From Morganella psychrotolerans (GTDB lineage Bacteria > Pseudomonadota > Gammaproteobacteria > Enterobacterales > Enterobacteriaceae): a stretch of 64,000 nt of DNA. Positions 3,582 to 12,523 of this stretch are shown one piece after another; within the stretch, counting starts at the first letter, position 1, and each line of letters starts with the position of its first letter. Location: positions 1 to 64,000 of the forward strand of contig NZ_LZEX01000006.1 in assembly GCF_001676055.1 (NCBI RefSeq), read 5' to 3'. The notes beneath the pieces are model-generated. The model made no database searches and had not been told where the DNA came from. It was given only the letters and a program-made list of their open reading frames with translations. The position numbers and the translations under genes are program-made.

Positions 3582-3833
3582 ATGAAAGTCACATCACCGG
3601 CCGCACTGGCTAATGCAGTCAGAGATCAGCGAAAAATCAGTAAGATGAGTCAGACTCAGACTGCTGAGCTGATTGGTATCAAACAGACAACCGTTTCTGA
3701 TTTCGAGAACAAACCGGAATCCACTAAGCTGGAAACGTTGTTCAAAATCCTTGCTGCTCTGGACCTAGAGCTTCATGTTACGAAACGAGGCTCAACTCCG
3801 GATGAGAAAAAAACATGGAATAAGGAGTGGTAA
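3582..3833 (+). CDS. hipB: HipB antitoxin (Xre-family HTH)
   Basis: The 83-aa protein has the conserved ELIGIKQTTVSDFENKPE...LETLFKILAALDLEL stretch seen in E. coli HipB. It overlaps or abuts hipA. Confidence 0.9.
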   Translation: MKVTSPAALANAVRDQRKISKMSQTQTAELIGIKQTTVSDFENKPESTKLETLFKILAALDLELHVTKRGSTPDEKKTWNKEW

Positions 3834-3836
3834 GGG

Positions 3837-5147
3837 ATGAAAACACAGGCACTGACAGTCGCCATGAACGGCGATGTGGTAGGCACACTGTATCGGGATG
3901 GTACGGGTGCTATGTCATTCGAATACACGCCGGAATGGCTGTCTGAGCCCGGTTCCCGAGCTATTTCATTATCATTGCCCCTTCAGCACAACAGAATCAG
4001 GGGTAAGGAAGTATTTAATTTCTTCAGTAACCTGCTGCCGGATTCAGAGGTGATTATTGCCAGGATGCAGGCACGGTTCCATGTTGATACAACTCACCCG
4101 TTTGATCTGCTGGCAAGTGTCGGGCGTGACTGCGTGGGCGCAATTCAGTTGTATCCGTCGGGCAGTGACATTCCGTCTGTCATGGAAACACGGGCTGAGC
4201 CGCTGGATGATCATCAGATTGAAACACTGCTTGATGGCTATCAGACGGCACCTTTAGGGATGGAAGAAGGCGCTGATTTCCGGATTTCTTTAGCCGGAGC
4301 TCAGGAAAAAACAGCACTGCTCTGGTATCAGAACTGCTGGCAGCGACCACAAGGCAGTACACCTACCAGTCATATTTTTAAGCTCCCGATTGGGCGGATA
4401 GAACAGAATAATATCGACCTGCGGGAAAGCTGCGAAAATGAATGGCTGTGTTTGCGTATAGCCAAAGCATTTGGATTCCCGGCGGCTGATGCTGAATTAG
4501 CCGTATTTGGTCAGAAAAAGGTACTGATCGTCAGGCGCTTTGATCGGAAGTGGTCAGAGAATGGCTGGCTGATGCGGTTGCCTCAAGAGGATTTTTGCCA
4601 GGCTCTGGGAGTATCTCCGGCACTGAAATATGAGTCACATGGCGGTCCGGGAATAGCGGATGCAATGAATCTGTTGTTGGGCTCCCGCCTTGCCACACAA
4701 GACCGTGAATTATTTTTTAAATCACAGATTCTGTTCTGGATGCTGGCTGCAATTGATGGTCACGGGAAGAATTTCAGCCTGTTTATCGAGCCCGAAACAT
4801 CGTTCCGGATGACACCGCTTTATGATGTGATGTCTGCATTTCCTATTTTTGGCAGCAGGAGTATTCCGCTTAAAAAAGCCAAAATGGCAATGGCGTTATA
4901 CGGGAAAAATAAGCAGTATAATTTTGCGATGATACAGCCCCGGCATTTTATCAGTACCGCCGCACAAGTCGGATTTCCTCAGGATATTGCCCGTAAACTT
5001 ATGCTGGAAATGGCCTCTTACACAGGCACGGTGATCTCCACTGTAGCCACAGAGTTACCGGCTGATTTTCCGCAACACATCAGTGGCGCCATTTTCAAAG
5101 GGTTATCCGGGCAGGCTGCTAAAATCGTTAAATGGGTGCAAAATTAA
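3837..5147 (+). CDS. hipA: HipA serine/threonine-protein kinase toxin
   Basis: The 436-aa protein aligns along its full length with E. coli HipA (FNFFSNLLPDS, GAQEKTALL, RLPQEDFCQA, KYESHGGPGIA, DGHGKNFSLF). Confidence 0.95.
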   Translation: MKTQALTVAMNGDVVGTLYRDGTGAMSFEYTPEWLSEPGSRAISLSLPLQHNRIRGKEVFNFFSNLLPDSEVIIARMQARFHVDTTHPFDLLASVGRDCVGAIQLYPSGSDIPSVMETRAEPLDDHQIETLLDGYQTAPLGMEEGADFRISLAGAQEKTALLWYQNCWQRPQGSTPTSHIFKLPIGRIEQNNIDLRESCENEWLCLRIAKAFGFPAADAELAVFGQKKVLIVRRFDRKWSENGWLMRLPQEDFCQALGVSPALKYESHGGPGIADAMNLLLGSRLATQDRELFFKSQILFWMLAAIDGHGKNFSLFIEPETSFRMTPLYDVMSAFPIFGSRSIPLKKAKMAMALYGKNKQYNFAMIQPRHFISTAAQVGFPQDIARKLMLEMASYTGTVISTVATELPADFPQHISGAIFKGLSGQAAKIVKWVQN

Positions 5148-5656: not shown

Positions 5657-6146
5657 AGAGTACATGGTTTAATTATTAACCACTTGGCAGTAAAGCAATA
5701 TCACCTCCGGATAGTCCGGCTATTATATCCACTATGAATATAGTGCATAAAATATACTGATGAAGAATGAATATAATGAAAACAGGCAGATTGTTCATAT
5801 CGTTATTGATGCTATATCCGAAGATACTACCCTTTAAATAATTTCTCGGTATAGATACAGATTCCATCTGAATACGCTAATTCTGAATTCTTAATACAAA
5901 TCCCCATCCCAAAAAACTCAATCACCCGATCTACTCCGGAAACCTTCAAAACCCCAAATACAGTTGCTGATACAAATCATTAGCCACCTAATTCCGGGTA
6001 TTTCCTGGCTTTGCGGCAACGTTGCCTTTTTTAGCCATTTTCATGAAACGTAAACCCGCTTGAACCCGTCATCCGTTACCCCTACGTTTATACGCGTAAA
6101 ACCTGCTGTCAGTGACAGCCGCCAATGTTTCAATATCAATAAGATA

Positions 6147-6270
6147 TATACCCAACGTCATTCAAGTTGCAGGCAGGCGGCAAGCTCCGACCGCCGGGGA
6201 GCATACTGGTATGTGACCCGGCGGGTATCGTTCCGCCAACGAACCTGCTGTTTGAATGAATAAGGGTATA
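6147..6270. repeat. MITE-like repeat, copy 1 (~124 bp). It has imperfect terminal inverted repeats TATACCCAACGTCATTCAAG...CTGNTGTTTGAATGAATAAGGGTATA.
   Basis: It is about 85% identical to the copy at 47650-47775. A partial 5' end is also present at 41382-41408. Confidence 0.6.
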
Positions 6271-6772
6271 AGTGACCTGCAAGAAACGCCTTCGGGTGGC
6301 CGCAATACTCTTCCGTAATCCGGAAGAAACACCGTTAAAACCGAATCTCAGTGTCTGATATGTGCAGTTGACTGCGCTTTGCTATGCCTCAAGGGCATCT
6401 GCAAGCGCCTGTCCTGCTGCGCAGTGTTTAAGGCGTCACTTTTACGCCGCCGCACAGACTACTCTCAGCCCCTGAGATACACCGCTTACACAATCCGTCA
6501 TGCCTCTGACACCACAGTCAGCGTCTGATAAATCACCGGAAAGGAGACCACAACCACACTGAACCGATACCGGGAACGGGCTGCTCAGCCCGTGGGGATA
6601 TCCGCTCACGGACAGCCAAAGGCGAAAGCTGCACCCGTGCGGTACTGCGTGACGATATGAAAGCAATGGGATTTGATGTCTCCAAAAAGTTTTCCCGCTG
6701 GCTGGATAAGCTGGAAAAAGACAATCTGATCACATTGCGTGGCGAGGAAATTATCCCGCTGCCGTATCAGAC

Positions 6773-6990
6773 CAAAGTGGGGGACTAAACGGGGGAATGG
6801 TGGGGGAAGCCATCCGGAGCACCATAAAAACCGGTGTTTTCCCCACTTCGCAGTTATATATAGAACCTAAGTGGGGGCGATGCTGTAATTTCATAATAAA
6901 CATGCAGTTACGTTAAATTCCAAAAATGAGGTGGGGGAAGAAGTGGCACCCAGCTATGTGGGGGGCGAAGTGGGGGACGTTCTCACGTTT
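6773..6990. repeat. iteron-like array. It has at least 7 copies of RRGTGGGGG(A/C), one of them inverted, within ~220 bp, followed by an AT-rich tract (7080-7400).
   Basis: Copies are AAGTGGGGGA (6774), GGTGGGGGAAG (6799), inverted CCCCACTTCG (6843), AAGTGGGGGCG (6871), GGTGGGGGAAGAAGTGG (6929) and TGTGGGGGGCGAAGTGGGGGAC (6957-6978). The spacing and the neighbouring AT-rich DNA resemble a replication origin. Confidence 0.55.
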
Positions 6991-7558
6991 TTTCCCTGGC
7001 AGGCGCAGTTAAAACCTCGCTGATTTACAGACAACGCGTCAGTGCCGGTCATCTCAAATTTATAGTTGAGCCAGATATTTTTGATTGAAATTTTTCAGTG
7101 CCTGGGTATTTTATATTAGATTCGTAACGTAGCCGTACTAATCACCATGGATGAGATAATATTGATCGATACCATTTTTTTTTATTTATAAGCGCATTGA
7201 TTTTCTGGCAATTATTGTTTTTTCTCTGCTTGCACTTTGGCTTTCATCCATTTCATCAGGACGAATTTTAAGGCTTGCATTATTTTTGTTAGCGATACTA
7301 ATTATTACCCCTTATATTTTTGCCGCTGCTTATGTATTACTTATAATGTCCGTAAGCCTGATGTTTGCATATAACTAAAAATATACACACATCAATATTG
7401 CGCTTCTGATAGTTTATCTGCCGCTCTACCGCATCCCGTAACCACATAGCTACTTAGTCGTGCTGTATCCAATCTATCTACCCACACTAACAAATTTGCG
7501 CTCAGTCAGGTACCTGACAAAAACGATCACATCCGAAGGTTGTTTTTTATGCATGCAT

Positions 7559-7599
7559 TTGACGATTTATAAATCATGATTTACTATAAACGTAAATCA
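7559..7599 (+). promoter_or_regulatory. sigma70-like promoter (TTGACG-17-TACTAT) overlapped by a perfect 8-bp inverted repeat TGATTTAC-N7-GTAAATCA. This is a probable autoregulatory operator of the Xre-type antitoxin gene.
   Basis: Sequence inspection; it sits about 40 bp upstream of the ATG at 7637. Confidence 0.45.
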
Positions 7600-7636
7600 C
7601 CCCGCTTTGTCACATGCGGAAAAATGGGAGGATCGT

Positions 7637-8278
7637 ATGCATACGCACAGTGCTGAAAGAGAAAGAAAAAAACCGGCTGTTTCATTTCATGCAAATGAGG
7701 TGCTGGCAAGCCGCGTCAGTCATCTTGTTTCATCCCTTTTTGCTGATTTTGACGATAAATCTCTGGTATCTGAAATCATGGTACTGGAAGACCTTGAGTT
7801 GCTGGTTTACGTTGTAAATGCTTATCTGCAAAAGAAAACGCGGATGAATGATCGCGAAATGGAGATGTTCAAAGCCAGAATTCAGGCTACAGTCAGATTT
7901 TATCAGAAGCTGGATAAGCTGGGCGGTACTGTAAAAGCGAAAGAGGTCAGTGAGTTGCTGGGAGTGACACGGCAAACCGTTAATAATCATGTTAACAAAG
8001 GCAAGCTGATTGCAGTACGTCGTGGCGGTGATTATCTGTTCCCTGTCTTTCAGTTTAAGGGGTCAGAAATGCTCCCTCATCTGGACGATATTCTGCTGTG
8101 TCTGCCGCCGGAAACGGATGCAACGGCACGGGTTTCATTCCTGACCAACCCGGTTCGAGTTGATAATAAAAATCCTGTAAAAACACCGCTTGAGATCCTC
8201 AGTGACAATCCTTCCGATGAAAAAATAGCACTGTTACGCCGCGAGGCTACACTTTTCGCCAATCAGATGGCATCATAA
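7637..8278 (+). CDS. Xre/MbcA/ParS-like antitoxin with an HTH plus a C-terminal DUF2384 toxin-binding domain, and an unusually long N-terminal region
   Basis: The HTH is VSELLGVTRQTVNNHVNKGKLIAVRRGGDYLFP. The C-terminal FLTNPVRVDNKNPVKTPLEILSDNPSDEKIALLRREATLFA matches the DUF2384 consensus. The ORF-track start at 7607 uses TTG; the ATG at 7637 has a GGGAGGA RBS. Confidence 0.7.
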   Translation: MHTHSAERERKKPAVSFHANEVLASRVSHLVSSLFADFDDKSLVSEIMVLEDLELLVYVVNAYLQKKTRMNDREMEMFKARIQATVRFYQKLDKLGGTVKAKEVSELLGVTRQTVNNHVNKGKLIAVRRGGDYLFPVFQFKGSEMLPHLDDILLCLPPETDATARVSFLTNPVRVDNKNPVKTPLEILSDNPSDEKIALLRREATLFANQMAS

Positions 8279-8320
8279 AAGGGTTCACCGGCCCAGACAG
8301 ACCGGTGAACCATAACAGCA

Positions 8321-8968
8321 TTAAAGCGTCACATCGAAGTGCAGTATTTTCACCAGCATCTCCTCTGCCGTGATGTCCTTATAAGGCCAGCCGACAGGCA
8401 GAAACTGATGCTCTGTATACTTACTGAGTGATTCACACGCCAGGGTTTTAAACAACTTTCCCTCTTCCGGTTCAAACACTGCGAGGCACATCCCCGCAAG
8501 ATAGTGGCGGCTTGCATAACGGATACCATGGAAATCCCGCTCCGGATCATTTGCCAGACAACCCGTGATAGCCTGCGTCAGTGTGTAGTCAACACCGGTC
8601 AGTTGATCCGCTGTCAAATGCAACATAGACGCAAGAGTCGCCATATCAACCAATCGCAGCGGGAATACCGGATGCAACGTGTACATCTGAGCAATCTCCA
8701 GACTGCTGCCGGATATCGCAAAATGCCCGCGACCATGGTGATACATCCTGCCATAACTTTCTGCCAGTGCTGTCAGGCTGTTCTCTGCGAAATAGCATAC
8801 CCCGGTATTACCGGACAGATCGTTATAGCGCCCCATATCATCCGGTTTTGTTGGTTTCCCGTAATGTTCCGCTGACGGATAGTGTTTTCCCTGAAAGCGC
8901 TTCACATCCAGATCAAAACCTAAAACAGGTAATTTCCCATTATGGCAAAGCTGGGTCAGTTGTTCCAA
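8321..8968 (-). CDS. RES-domain toxin (NAD+-targeting Res/MbcT/ParT family)
   Basis: The protein carries GRYNDLSGNTGVCYFAENSLTALAE and FHGIRYASRH motifs with the conserved R, E and S positions. It is convergent with the DUF2384 gene, 42 bp apart. Confidence 0.75.
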   Translation of the reverse strand: MEQLTQLCHNGKLPVLGFDLDVKRFQGKHYPSAEHYGKPTKPDDMGRYNDLSGNTGVCYFAENSLTALAESYGRMYHHGRGHFAISGSSLEIAQMYTLHPVFPLRLVDMATLASMLHLTADQLTGVDYTLTQAITGCLANDPERDFHGIRYASRHYLAGMCLAVFEPEEGKLFKTLACESLSKYTEHQFLPVGWPYKDITAEEMLVKILHFDVTL

Positions 8969-9209
8969 AACGACGAGATATCTTCCATCACAAATAATTC
9001 CTATATATTTAATATCCTTACTAAATAACGAATGATAGCGATATGCTTCACCCTTCCTGAAAGTTCAGTTCATATTTCTGTATGTGAACTGCCGATCCTG
9101 CCCATAAGCAGGAGCGGCAATCGTTGCACATTTGTTAAATCAGGTTAAGGTTTTTATTGTTATTCTTTGAATTGGATATGAAAAATAGTCTGAACAGAGT
9201 CAAAACTAA

Positions 9210-9243
9210 AAGATGATATACAGTACCGGCCATCTAAAAACAG
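9210..9243 (-). terminator. hairpin with a perfect 11-bp stem (ACAGTACCGGC...GCCGGTACTGT) immediately 3' of the integrase
   Basis: Stem-loop followed by a T-rich tract on the minus strand. Confidence 0.45.
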
Positions 9244-9261
9244 CCGGTACTGTGTTAAATA

Positions 9262-10521
9262 TTATCCGATCTCAAACTCATACGGCACCACAAACTCCCG
9301 GCTGACTGCATCCAGGTAATCACCCCACCATTGCATTATCAGTTTTCGTTCCACAATGTGTTCGGCTTTGTGAATATAGGCGGCGCGGACGGCATTGCGC
9401 TCCTGGTGGCTCATCTGCCGCTCTATCGCATCCCGTGACCATTTTCCTGATTCAATCAGTGCGCTGCACGCCATGGTGCGAAAACCATGACCGCACAGCT
9501 CCTTAGCAGTGTCGTATCCCATCGTCCGCAGGGCATTGTTCACCGTGTTCTCACTCATCGGTTTTATCAGGCTATGGTCGCCCGGGAAGAGCAGCTCGCC
9601 CTCTCCGCTTATTGTCCTGATTTCTGCCAGAACGGCCAGTGTCTGGCGCGACAGCGGCACAATATGCTCTGACTGCATTTTTGCACCACGATAGGAGAAT
9701 TTCACACCGGGAATCGGCGTACGCTCTGCCGGAATTATCCAGATGGCGCGTTCTGTGTCGAATTCAGACCAGCGGGCAAGACGGATTTCACTGGAGCGCG
9801 AAAACGTCAGCAGCGTAAACTGTATCGCCAGTTTGGTTAACCGGCGGCCGTTGTAATAATCCAGCTTTGTCAGCAGCTCCGGCAGCCGTTCCAGCCGCAG
9901 CGCCGGGCGGTGGGTCACACGCGGCGGCATCAGTGCTCCGGCCATGTCCTTCGCAGGATTGCGATCAATCACGCCGCACTGAACCGCATATCCCATGATA
10001 TCCGTGATCCGCTGCTTCAGCCGCGAGGCCAGCTCCAGACGATCATTCGCCTCTACAATCCGCAGCGGTACCAGTAAATCTTTGGTTTTCAGTTCCGCAA
10101 CATGCCGCTGACCTATCGCCGGGAGAATATGCTTTTCCATATCGCGCCAGATACGGTTAGCGTGCGTCTCTGACCAGCGCCGCCGTCTGAGCATCTGCTG
10201 CGACCATTCTCGCGCCATTTTCTCAAAGGTATTCAGCGCATCCTCTTCGGCTTCCTTCTCCGCGATACGCTTCTGCTTCGGGTGAATACCATCCAGTATC
10301 ATCAGACGGGCTTCATCGCGTTTATCACGGGCGCGTGACAGTGAAACCAGCGGATATGCGCCGAATGCTATCCGGCTCTCTTTGCCGTTGTATGCAAACT
10401 TAAAATACCAGCGCTTTGTACCAACCGGATTTACCTGAAGATAAAGGCCGTACTCGTCGGCCAGTTTGTACATCTTTTTACCAGGTTTTGCGTTCCTTGC
10501 TGCCATGTCACTTAATGCCAT
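9262..10521 (-). CDS. int: P4-type tyrosine integrase/recombinase, full length
   Basis: The 419-aa protein has a DUF4102 arm-binding N-terminus (MALSDMAARNAKPGKKMYKLAD...) and a catalytic C-terminal domain. It lies 1.9 kb from tRNA-Leu on the same strand. Confidence 0.95.
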   Translation of the reverse strand: MALSDMAARNAKPGKKMYKLADEYGLYLQVNPVGTKRWYFKFAYNGKESRIAFGAYPLVSLSRARDKRDEARLMILDGIHPKQKRIAEKEAEEDALNTFEKMAREWSQQMLRRRRWSETHANRIWRDMEKHILPAIGQRHVAELKTKDLLVPLRIVEANDRLELASRLKQRITDIMGYAVQCGVIDRNPAKDMAGALMPPRVTHRPALRLERLPELLTKLDYYNGRRLTKLAIQFTLLTFSRSSEIRLARWSEFDTERAIWIIPAERTPIPGVKFSYRGAKMQSEHIVPLSRQTLAVLAEIRTISGEGELLFPGDHSLIKPMSENTVNNALRTMGYDTAKELCGHGFRTMACSALIESGKWSRDAIERQMSHQERNAVRAAYIHKAEHIVERKLIMQWWGDYLDAVSREFVVPYEFEIG

Positions 10522-12396: not shown

Positions 12397-12413
12397 TTGA
12401 TTTCACTTAAGAA

Positions 12414-12495
12414 TGCCGAAGGCCGGAATCGAACCGGCACGCCCTAAAGCGGTTGATTTTGAATCAACTGCGTCTACCAATTCCGCCACTCCGGC
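12414..12495 (-). tRNA. leuX: tRNA-Leu (anticodon CAA), the leuX homologue. Its 3' end is reconstituted from island sequence and no CCA is encoded (the 3' trailer is TTC).
   Basis: It is 82 nt and matches E. coli leuX (GCCGGAGTGGCGGAATTGGTAGACGCAGTTGATTCAAAATCAACC...GTGCCGGTTCGATTCCGGCCTTCGGCA). The anticodon loop is TTCAAAA. Confidence 0.9.
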
Positions 12496-12523
12496 ACTGA
12501 AGTGTGTTCTCGATAACGGCGTT

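Follow-up and report, generated by a model that had tools for sequence, protein, structure and literature searches.

A convergently arranged pair of RES-domain and Rv2175c-like winged-helix genes in Morganella psychrotolerans as a candidate wiring variant of RES toxin-antitoxin modules

In a 64,000-nt stretch of Morganella psychrotolerans DNA (hereafter the window, to the whole of which all coordinates refer), a gene for a RES-domain protein and a gene for a helix-turn-helix (HTH) DNA-binding protein were found to face each other tail to tail. The pair is read here, with a probability of about 0.6, as a wiring variant of RES toxin-antitoxin (TA) modules, in which a neutralising antitoxin would repress its own promoter, the toxin would be transcribed independently and gated at the level of translation, and a terminator would be shared by the two genes; the toxicity of the RES protein and its neutralisation by the neighbour are predicted from sequence. 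The convergent layout appears to be a hitherto undescribed wiring of TA genes and not a local accident, and the comparison of loci points to a conserved, mobile two-gene module of ~1.6 kb (roughly 7557-9170). The two genes, the control region of the HTH gene and the spacer are composed as follows.

7559-7587, plus strand: promoter of the HTH gene, located by a consensus scan, with the -35 hexamer TTGACG (7559-7564), a 17-nt spacer and the -10 hexamer TACTAT (7582-7587)
7559-7596: conserved operator-like inverted repeat, with the left arm TTGACGATTT (7559-7568) and the right arm TAAACGTAAA (7587-7596)
7637-8278, plus strand: Rv2175c-like winged-HTH gene, putative antitoxin and autorepressor, 213 aa from ATG 7637, within an open reading frame (ORF) spanning 7607-8278
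8282-8311: terminator-like hairpin GGTTCACCGG-N10-CCGGTGAACC, a perfect 10-bp inverted repeat in the 42-bp spacer
8321-8968, minus strand: RES-domain gene, 215 aa from TTG 8968

The ORF coordinates agreed with the first-pass annotation of this DNA, in which the 213-aa and 215-aa genes had been described as convergent, 42 bp apart (stop-to-stop gap, 8279-8320) and each provided with an upstream region of its own. Since the genes lie on opposite strands with separate upstream regions and a hairpin between them, they do not form the bicistronic operon of type II TA systems, and an antitoxin gene placed upstream of RES in one operon was found neither in the window nor in any homologous locus examined. 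The HTH gene is preceded by the Shine-Dalgarno (SD) sequence GGGAGGA (7626-7632) upstream of ATG 7637, and the length of its product fits that of the close homologues, all of which are 209-215 aa. The HTH protein was 98% identical to a protein of M. psychrotolerans DSM 17886 (locus L014), the top RES match (92% identity) is annotated as M. morganii, and a megablast search of 7300-9300 against complete E. coli genomes gave no match.

Homologous loci, numbered here with the prefix L, were collected by exact-protein look-ups, by scans of species-representative genomes, metagenomes and viral contigs, and from plasmids. In every examined locus that holds both genes (>20 lineages), the order was HTH-> <-RES, with a spacer of 23-57 bp containing a GC-rich hairpin, and no same-strand version of the pair was found among the loci examined. 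It had been suggested at first that the pair was either differently wired or rearranged; the comparison supports the former, and rearrangement is excluded because all examined loci with both genes are convergent, in unrelated contexts. These contexts comprise a P4-like satellite with the order int-RES-HTH-primase-Ash-AlpA (L009), the cargo of integrative conjugative elements (ICEs; L004-L008), Rep3/ParA plasmids (L013, L040), and IncF and IncI conjugative plasmids (L041, L042). The module was present in Morganella, Enterobacter, Salmonella, Citrobacter, Pantoea, Proteus, Aeromonas, Pseudomonas, Enterovibrio, Klebsiella and E. coli, in several metagenome clades, and on one of the 2.9 million viral contigs scanned. 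RES genes of the module clade were found on 139 PLSDB plasmids (92 from Klebsiella and 18 from Raoultella), for the most part large ones, of which 112 are predicted to be conjugative. The RefSeq label of the partner is only 'DNA-binding protein' or 'helix-turn-helix domain-containing protein', the former being the sole annotation of the convergent partner in NZ_CP031818.1 (348568-349957) and CP098934.1 (18973-20343). As in type II systems, a conserved adjacent pair of predicted toxin and protein-antitoxin genes is found on mobile DNA (>20 lineages, 139 plasmids).

The two partners co-diverge: RES proteins with 35-40% identity were accompanied by HTH proteins with 28% identity in full-length alignments, and among the convergent loci identity dropped to ~30-40% for RES and to 24-28% for the partner. 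In the most distant loci (L039, L040), RES was seen as weak profile matches (E ~1e-9 to 1e-11), and the distant HTH members P0108 and P0139 (~24% identity) have a convergent RES gene 43 and 39 bp away, respectively. The HTH gene persists without RES after deletion or insertion-sequence insertion in L001 and L002 and adjoins a truncated RES remnant in L003, and no RES gene of the module clade lacking the HTH gene was seen in RES-first look-ups; survival of the HTH gene without RES, with the converse unseen, is what a TA relationship predicts. Both genes are under purifying selection, with a ratio of nonsynonymous to synonymous substitution rates (dN/dS) of ~0.1. Locus L021 is a mosaic, its HTH gene being nearest to L009 (dS 0.20) and its RES gene nearest to the window (dS 0.49, vs 1.08 to L009), a pattern suggesting that the two genes have recombined, possibly at the hairpin between them.

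The hexamers and the spacing of the HTH promoter are kept in alignments of the homologous loci; described at first pass as a consensus promoter, it is present and, with a score of 9/12, good rather than consensus. It is bracketed by the 10-bp arms of an inverted repeat with the family consensus TTGACGATTT-N18-20-AAATCGTCAA, the left arm of which holds the -35 hexamer and the right arm of which begins just past the -10 hexamer. The arms scored 7-10/10 in ~25 distinct loci with a gap of 18-20 nt (7/10 in the window), and they co-vary, appearing as ACACTT/AAGTGT in L010 (Salmonella clade) and as ACGTTT/AAACGT in L015 (Aeromonas). The comparison gives strong evidence for a putative symmetric site of protein binding, occupation of which would block the promoter and amount to autorepression. 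In an HTH subclade resembling P0100, the promoter retains the left operator arm only. A second placement of the operator, upstream of RES, was rejected; there a position weight matrix (PWM) built from the arms scored at chance level, and there is therefore no sign of an operator common to both promoters. The repeat to which attention had been drawn earlier is another one.

7577-7584 and 7592-7599: dyad TGATTTAC-N7-GTAAATCA, perfect over 8 bp, the right arm of which overlaps the conserved right arm

This dyad is indeed a perfect 8-bp repeat, but it is not the conserved operator: about 0.2-0.4 dyads of 8 bp are estimated to occur by chance per 300 AT-rich bases, the repeat is imperfect even in L014 (TGACTTAC / GTAAACCA), and neither L014 nor L009, L004 or L021 preserves it; it is specific to the window.

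The hairpin in the spacer gave fold z-scores of -5.0 and -4.9 on the two strands relative to shuffled sequence. CTTTTA follows it on the RES strand, the only one with a T-run, and here the hairpin has a terminator-like score. Its sequence varies by lineage, and several copies are textbook bidirectional terminators (e.g. AAAAAGCCC..GGGCTTTTTT). The hairpin is regarded as a terminator-like element common to both genes.

The RES protein matched PF08808 in Pfam, the profile of the RES-domain toxins of COG5654 (E=7.8e-15; score 55.7 bits, cut-off 23.2; residues 24-169), and R47 (in MGRYND), E70 (in ALAES) and S153 (in YASRH), which are invariant across intact homologues, are all present in the window protein. 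NCBIfam gave no RES match. A search of PDB sequences with the RES profile matched zero solved RES toxins, and fold comparison was therefore used, in which the structure model showed a RES/ADP-ribosyltransferase-like fold, with the diphtheria-toxin and PARP folds ranking next. On these grounds the family assignment of the 215-aa protein is judged sound, and the candidate chemistries predicted for the toxin are NAD+ phosphorolysis, NADase activity or ADP-ribosylation of Prs.

The partner protein is divided into three parts.

aa 1-95: N-terminal four-helix domain
aa ~96-146: winged HTH
aa ~147-213: C-terminal domain

In Pfam, the HTH protein exceeded the thresholds of HTH_17 (1.3e-7) and Rv2175c_wHTH (PF21531; 1.5e-6; 28.5 bits against a cut-off of 27.1), and its match to the Xre-MbcA-ParS middle domain PF23125 was sub-threshold (E=0.018; 15.2 bits against 27.8); NCBIfam gave an excisionase-type HTH only, again sub-threshold. 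In the AlphaFold2 model (predicted local distance difference test score, pLDDT, 84.6), the N-terminal region forms four helices (aa 19-94), the winged HTH covers aa ~98-136, and the C-terminal part is helical. An extra N-terminal region of ~100 aa had been noticed before, and it is borne out as ~95 aa with four helices ahead of the HTH; this region is family-specific, has no recognisable relative, and is conserved within the family at R26, D52, L55, R73, F88 and L92. The family profile matched 2KFS (Rv2175c) at E=4.4e-11 over both the winged HTH and the C-terminal domain.

A full-library profile search showed the HTH family to be large, with 4762 representative clusters at a threshold of E<=1e-3 and still 1423 when this was set to E<=1e-10, mostly full-length proteins of 200-230 aa. 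Among 80 distant members, PF23125 weakly matched 13, Rv2175c_C (PF18367) matched 10, and PF09722 (DUF2384) weakly matched 9 (E<=0.01, best 8e-6); in the two members inspected, the PF09722 match was sub-threshold and fell in the C-terminal segment (residues ~175-207). Alignment of the family with MbcA by hhalign (query sequence 100% identical to 6FKG chain C) was collinear over 92 columns (probability 34%, E=4e-4), with a shared pattern in which the HTH is followed by ..W/F-x-x-x-P-x..L..P.d.L.. These matches argue for a link to the MbcA/ParS toxin-binding domain that is real but remote. By profile and fold, the partner is placed in the Rv2175c-like family, as at most a remote relative of the Xre/MbcA/ParS antitoxins (COG5642; PF20432, PF23125 and PF09722), and its HTH is classed with the winged excisionase/MerR type, as in Rv2175c, and not with Xre. 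Of the Res/Xre pair called unmistakable in the first-pass annotation, the RES half holds (PF08808 above its cut-off), but the Xre half gives way to a winged HTH of the Rv2175c type. Likewise, checking by profiles upheld the RES assignment and yielded no Pfam match for DUF2384, which had been a reasonable call by eye from a motif, with no demonstrable family membership of the window protein.

The region upstream of RES carries the second set of conserved elements.

9066-9091 (P2) and 9090-9119 (P1), minus strand: leader hairpins, found as inverted repeats, fold z -4.7
9120-9170, minus strand: conserved block ..CTTAACC..GCAACGATT.. upstream of the leader, found by alignment

About 200 bp upstream of RES were conserved in alignments of the satellite, ICE and Morganella copies, and a recurrent leader plan was recognised in far more distant loci, consisting of two hairpins (P1 and P2), a single strand that is conserved, and the motif GGTGA-N2-4-TATG. 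The structured leader, which most clades possess, lies at 3836-3915 in L022, 3822-3902 in L030, 4899-4965 in L010, ~4840-5000 in L004 and, on the minus strand, 9000-9170 in the window. The motif is the SD and ATG of an upstream ORF of 17-30 codons, which starts 31-44 nt ahead of the RES ATG, out of frame, ends 20-49 nt within RES, and includes the RES SD. Hairpins equivalent to P1 and P2 but of other sequence are present in L004 and L009. The block at 9120-9170 presumably holds the RES promoter; a promoter scan of it gave no good sigma-70 match.

In the metagenome/Pseudomonas clade, RNAalifold gave P1 and P2 plus two more helices, P3 (CGUAAG/CUUAUG) and P4 (ACC/GGU), which pair with the AUG and the SD of the upstream ORF, respectively. 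In P1 and P2 of this clade, 7 pairs were changed on both sides, a count that none of 500 shuffles reached, and slid controls collapsed. Register-compatible variants of P3 occur elsewhere (CCAUAA/UUAUGG in L010, L035 and L038; CAUAAGC/GCUUAUG in L015), and, on a reading of the locus alignments, U-A has been exchanged for C-G in one case at the base following the upstream-ORF AUG. The minimum-free-energy fold of L022 reproduced P1-P4 together with a hairpin over the RES SD, within the upstream ORF. No Rfam family was found for the leader or the spacer in the window and eight loci at gathering and permissive thresholds, and the leader motif, sought in viral contigs as an exact pattern, gave 0 matches. 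A covariance model of the metagenome/Pseudomonas clade recovered other clades weakly (E ~1-3) at the correct positions and missed the diverged leader of the window. The leader is a candidate new cis-regulatory RNA, and we infer that it may serve as a translational gate coupled via the upstream ORF, functionally like that of mok/hok.

The Morganella copy deviates from this plan at both start codons.

9002-9004, minus strand: ATA in place of the ancestral start codon of RES, which is ATG in homologues (227-236 aa)
9040-9054, minus strand: remnant of the upstream-ORF start, with GGGTGA (9049-9054) and then ATC (9040-9042), where relatives have GGTGA-N-ATG

Both codons are altered throughout the Morganella lineage (the window, L014, L021 and, by protein length, P0012), and TTG 8968 is the first remaining standard start codon of the window RES gene. 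The hairpins P1 and P2 persist in the window at 9066-9119. Between the two ATG-less copies in the window and L021, dN/dS was 0.094 for RES at dS 0.49, and that of the HTH gene was 0.11. The view that loss of the ATG had made the Morganella RES a pseudogene was rejected on this value of 0.09; purifying selection persists on the ATG-less gene, and the toxin is therefore probably still made at a low level, with weak translation probably starting from TTG 8968 or from the ATA at 9002-9004.

Under the wiring-variant reading, the HTH protein, as a dimer or a higher oligomer, would bind the TTGACGATTT/AAATCGTCAA arms and repress its own promoter, and its C-terminal Rv2175c_C/DUF2384-like segment, possibly together with the N-terminal helical domain, would bind RES and block the NAD+ site, as MbcA, ParS and NatR do. 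RES would be made from a separate transcript; the leader would gate its translation, which would be coupled to that of the upstream ORF, and the toxin:antitoxin ratio would be set by two independent transcription units instead of by operon polarity. When antitoxin synthesis is lost or shut off (by loss of the plasmid or island, or by phage shut-off), free RES would deplete NAD+ or a related metabolite. A wider proposal is advanced tentatively, with the odds somewhat against it: the loci may represent a large unannotated class of RES modules with convergent units, uncoupled by design, and a common bidirectional terminator. Their antitoxin would be an autoregulated Rv2175c-like protein carrying a novel N-terminal domain, and their toxin would be held under a 'double lock' of protein neutralisation and a hitherto undescribed structured leader with a mok-like overlapping upstream ORF, which would combine the control logic of type II with that of type I. 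If true, this proposal would also point to toxin binding as the ancestral role of the Rv2175c C-terminal domain.

Several results weigh against reading the pair as a neutralised toxin with its antitoxin. The mean confidence of the RES structure model is low (pLDDT 62.8). PF09722 had no match in the window HTH protein, the HTH profile matched no solved RES antitoxin by sequence, and Foldseek of the HTH model against PDB gave Rv2175c as the sole significant match (E=4.7e-5). In most loci, the operator half-site upstream of RES was no better than in shuffles by the PWM scan, and transcriptional coupling of the two genes is therefore not in evidence. The helices P3 and P4 are invariant in the clade used for covariation, and their cross-clade support comes from few sequences. 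One HTH subclade (P0100; L020, 300-1518, and L036) lacks RES and has a convergent parDE pair next to it instead. From the literature, the GndRX study shows that RES pairs need not act as classical TA systems (PMC12457610).

Some of these points also speak for a quite unlikely alternative, in which the HTH protein would be a transcription factor only, or a servant of the mobile element, with no neutralisation of RES, and RES would be harmless owing to its leader and upstream ORF, to an antisense RNA that has escaped notice, or to a lack of toxicity like that of GndR, so that adjacency would reflect co-regulation or hitch-hiking. The nearest solved relative, Rv2175c, is a DNA-binding protein without a toxin partner, PF09722 has no direct match, RES has its own elaborate post-transcriptional control, a RES-free HTH subclade exists, and GndR is non-toxic (PMC12457610). 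However, strict adjacency and co-divergence in >20 lineages and unrelated contexts are hard to explain without a direct functional dependency, the HTH gene outlasts decay of RES while the reverse is unseen, the C-terminal segment resembles a toxin-binding domain, and no operator was found upstream of RES, so the HTH protein is not evidently a transcriptional regulator of RES. There is only a very slight chance that the tail-to-tail order arose by local rearrangement or decay of an antitoxin-first Xre-RES operon in a degraded island. The island is degraded, with a primase remnant (6600-6788) and a truncated second integrase (366-674), and the start codons of RES and the upstream ORF are mutated; yet order, spacing and hairpin are alike in all homologous loci, dN/dS of ~0.1 indicates purifying selection on both genes, and no same-strand pair was found among the loci examined, so this explanation is refuted by the comparative data.

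A further proposal, which is rather unlikely, assigns the pair to abortive infection or anti-phage defence, in which the HTH protein would restrain RES and sense infection or be lost when the host is shut off, and RES would collapse NAD+ and kill the infected cell. NAD+ depletion is a known effector strategy of abortive infection, and the neighbourhoods are suggestive: the module adjoins an integrase in a P4-like satellite, travels as ICE cargo beside Fic, AbiEi-like and M78/HTH genes, lies beside AAA_13/SMC-like ATPase, VapBC and Mrr/nSTAND genes, and shares the window island with hipBA and an HD-domain protein. Against this, PADLOC gave no match for RES and only a generic HTH (mad1) match for the partner, and the module occurred on just 1 of 2.9 million viral contigs. 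This proposal concerns biological role and, as framed, is mechanistically compatible with the wiring-variant reading, which is retained as the best explanation.

The surroundings of the module in the window are as follows.

366-674: truncated second P4-type integrase, comprising the Arm-DNA-binding domain only
1140-2496: HD-domain protein (323 aa) followed by an overlapping 136-aa ORF, ~29-30% GC
3582-3833 and 3837-5147: hipB (83 aa) and hipA (436 aa), a canonical antitoxin-first bicistron
6000-6900: segment of ~51% GC without a long ORF, between low-GC segments
6600-6788: terminal ~63 codons of a primase gene, with 92% identity to the satellite primase of L009
9262-10521, minus strand: P4-type tyrosine integrase (Pfam), syntenic with L009 and flanking the module, given as context only

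The integrase and the gene pair sit in an island at tRNA-Leu(CAA) (12413-12496). The satellite that brought the RES pair has been eroded to the integrase and the module. Homology to L009 explains only 6596-7051 of the segment with the higher GC content. The hipBA bicistron lies ~2.5 kb from the RES pair in the same island, and 1140-2496 possibly represents a dGTPase-like gene that was split or frameshifted, within an older segment of the island.

TA prediction tools and the textbook definition of type II systems assume one operon, and a convergent RES module would be invisible to them. Carried on conjugative plasmids, ICEs and satellites, the module may aid the stability of clinically relevant elements or phage defence. 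It would also provide a natural test of how the toxin:antitoxin ratio is controlled without transcriptional coupling, and it adds a candidate cis-regulatory RNA without an Rfam family and a functional lead for the Rv2175c family.

Among known systems, MbcTA, ParST, the Xre-RES pair of P. putida, VPA0770/0769 and SlvTA are antitoxin-first operons. KnaAT is a canonical, co-transcribed operon, and NatRT and the RES-COG5642 pairs of the Makarova 2009 survey are operons or predicted operons (PMC10896132, PMC11535050, PMC2701414); a putative operon is also assumed for the Legionella systems in the GndRX study (PMC12457610). No description of a convergent RES module was found in full-text literature searches. 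With these RES-Xre systems (MbcTA, ParST, P. putida Xre-RES, NatRT, VPA0770/0769, KnaAT, SlvTA and GndRX), the module shares the RES fold with its R/E/S triad, and mobility with enrichment on plasmids. It differs from them in its convergent genes with separate promoters and a shared terminator, in an HTH of the HTH_17/Rv2175c winged type instead of Xre, and in a RES gene that carries a structured leader and an overlapping upstream ORF of its own. The partner is also longer, 208-227 aa with the extra ~95-aa N-terminal helical domain, compared with 113 aa for MbcA and 129 aa for the solved NatR chain. NatT and GndR possess an N-terminal 'flap' (PMC12457610), and the window RES protein is extended N-terminally ahead of the GRYND motif, a possible counterpart of the flap.

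Outside the RES-Xre systems, the closest relative of the partner is Rv2175c of Mycobacterium tuberculosis (PDB 2KFS; PF21531 and PF18367), which lacks the N-terminal four-helix domain. Rv2175c is described as a DNA-binding substrate of the kinase PknL and is not known to be encoded beside a RES gene. The leader resembles that of the type I system hok/mok/sok in that the toxin frame is preceded by an upstream ORF which has a strong SD and overlaps it out of frame, and in a predicted fold that pairs the SD and AUG of this ORF, a functional likeness drawn from sequence only; the module differs in that a protein partner is present and no antisense RNA was identified, and in that its toxin is a 215-236-aa enzyme instead of a small membrane peptide. 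In restriction-modification systems with convergent R and M genes, poison and antidote are likewise placed on separate units with independent timing; this comparison is an analogy only, the proteins being unrelated and no activator of the C-protein type being evident in the module.

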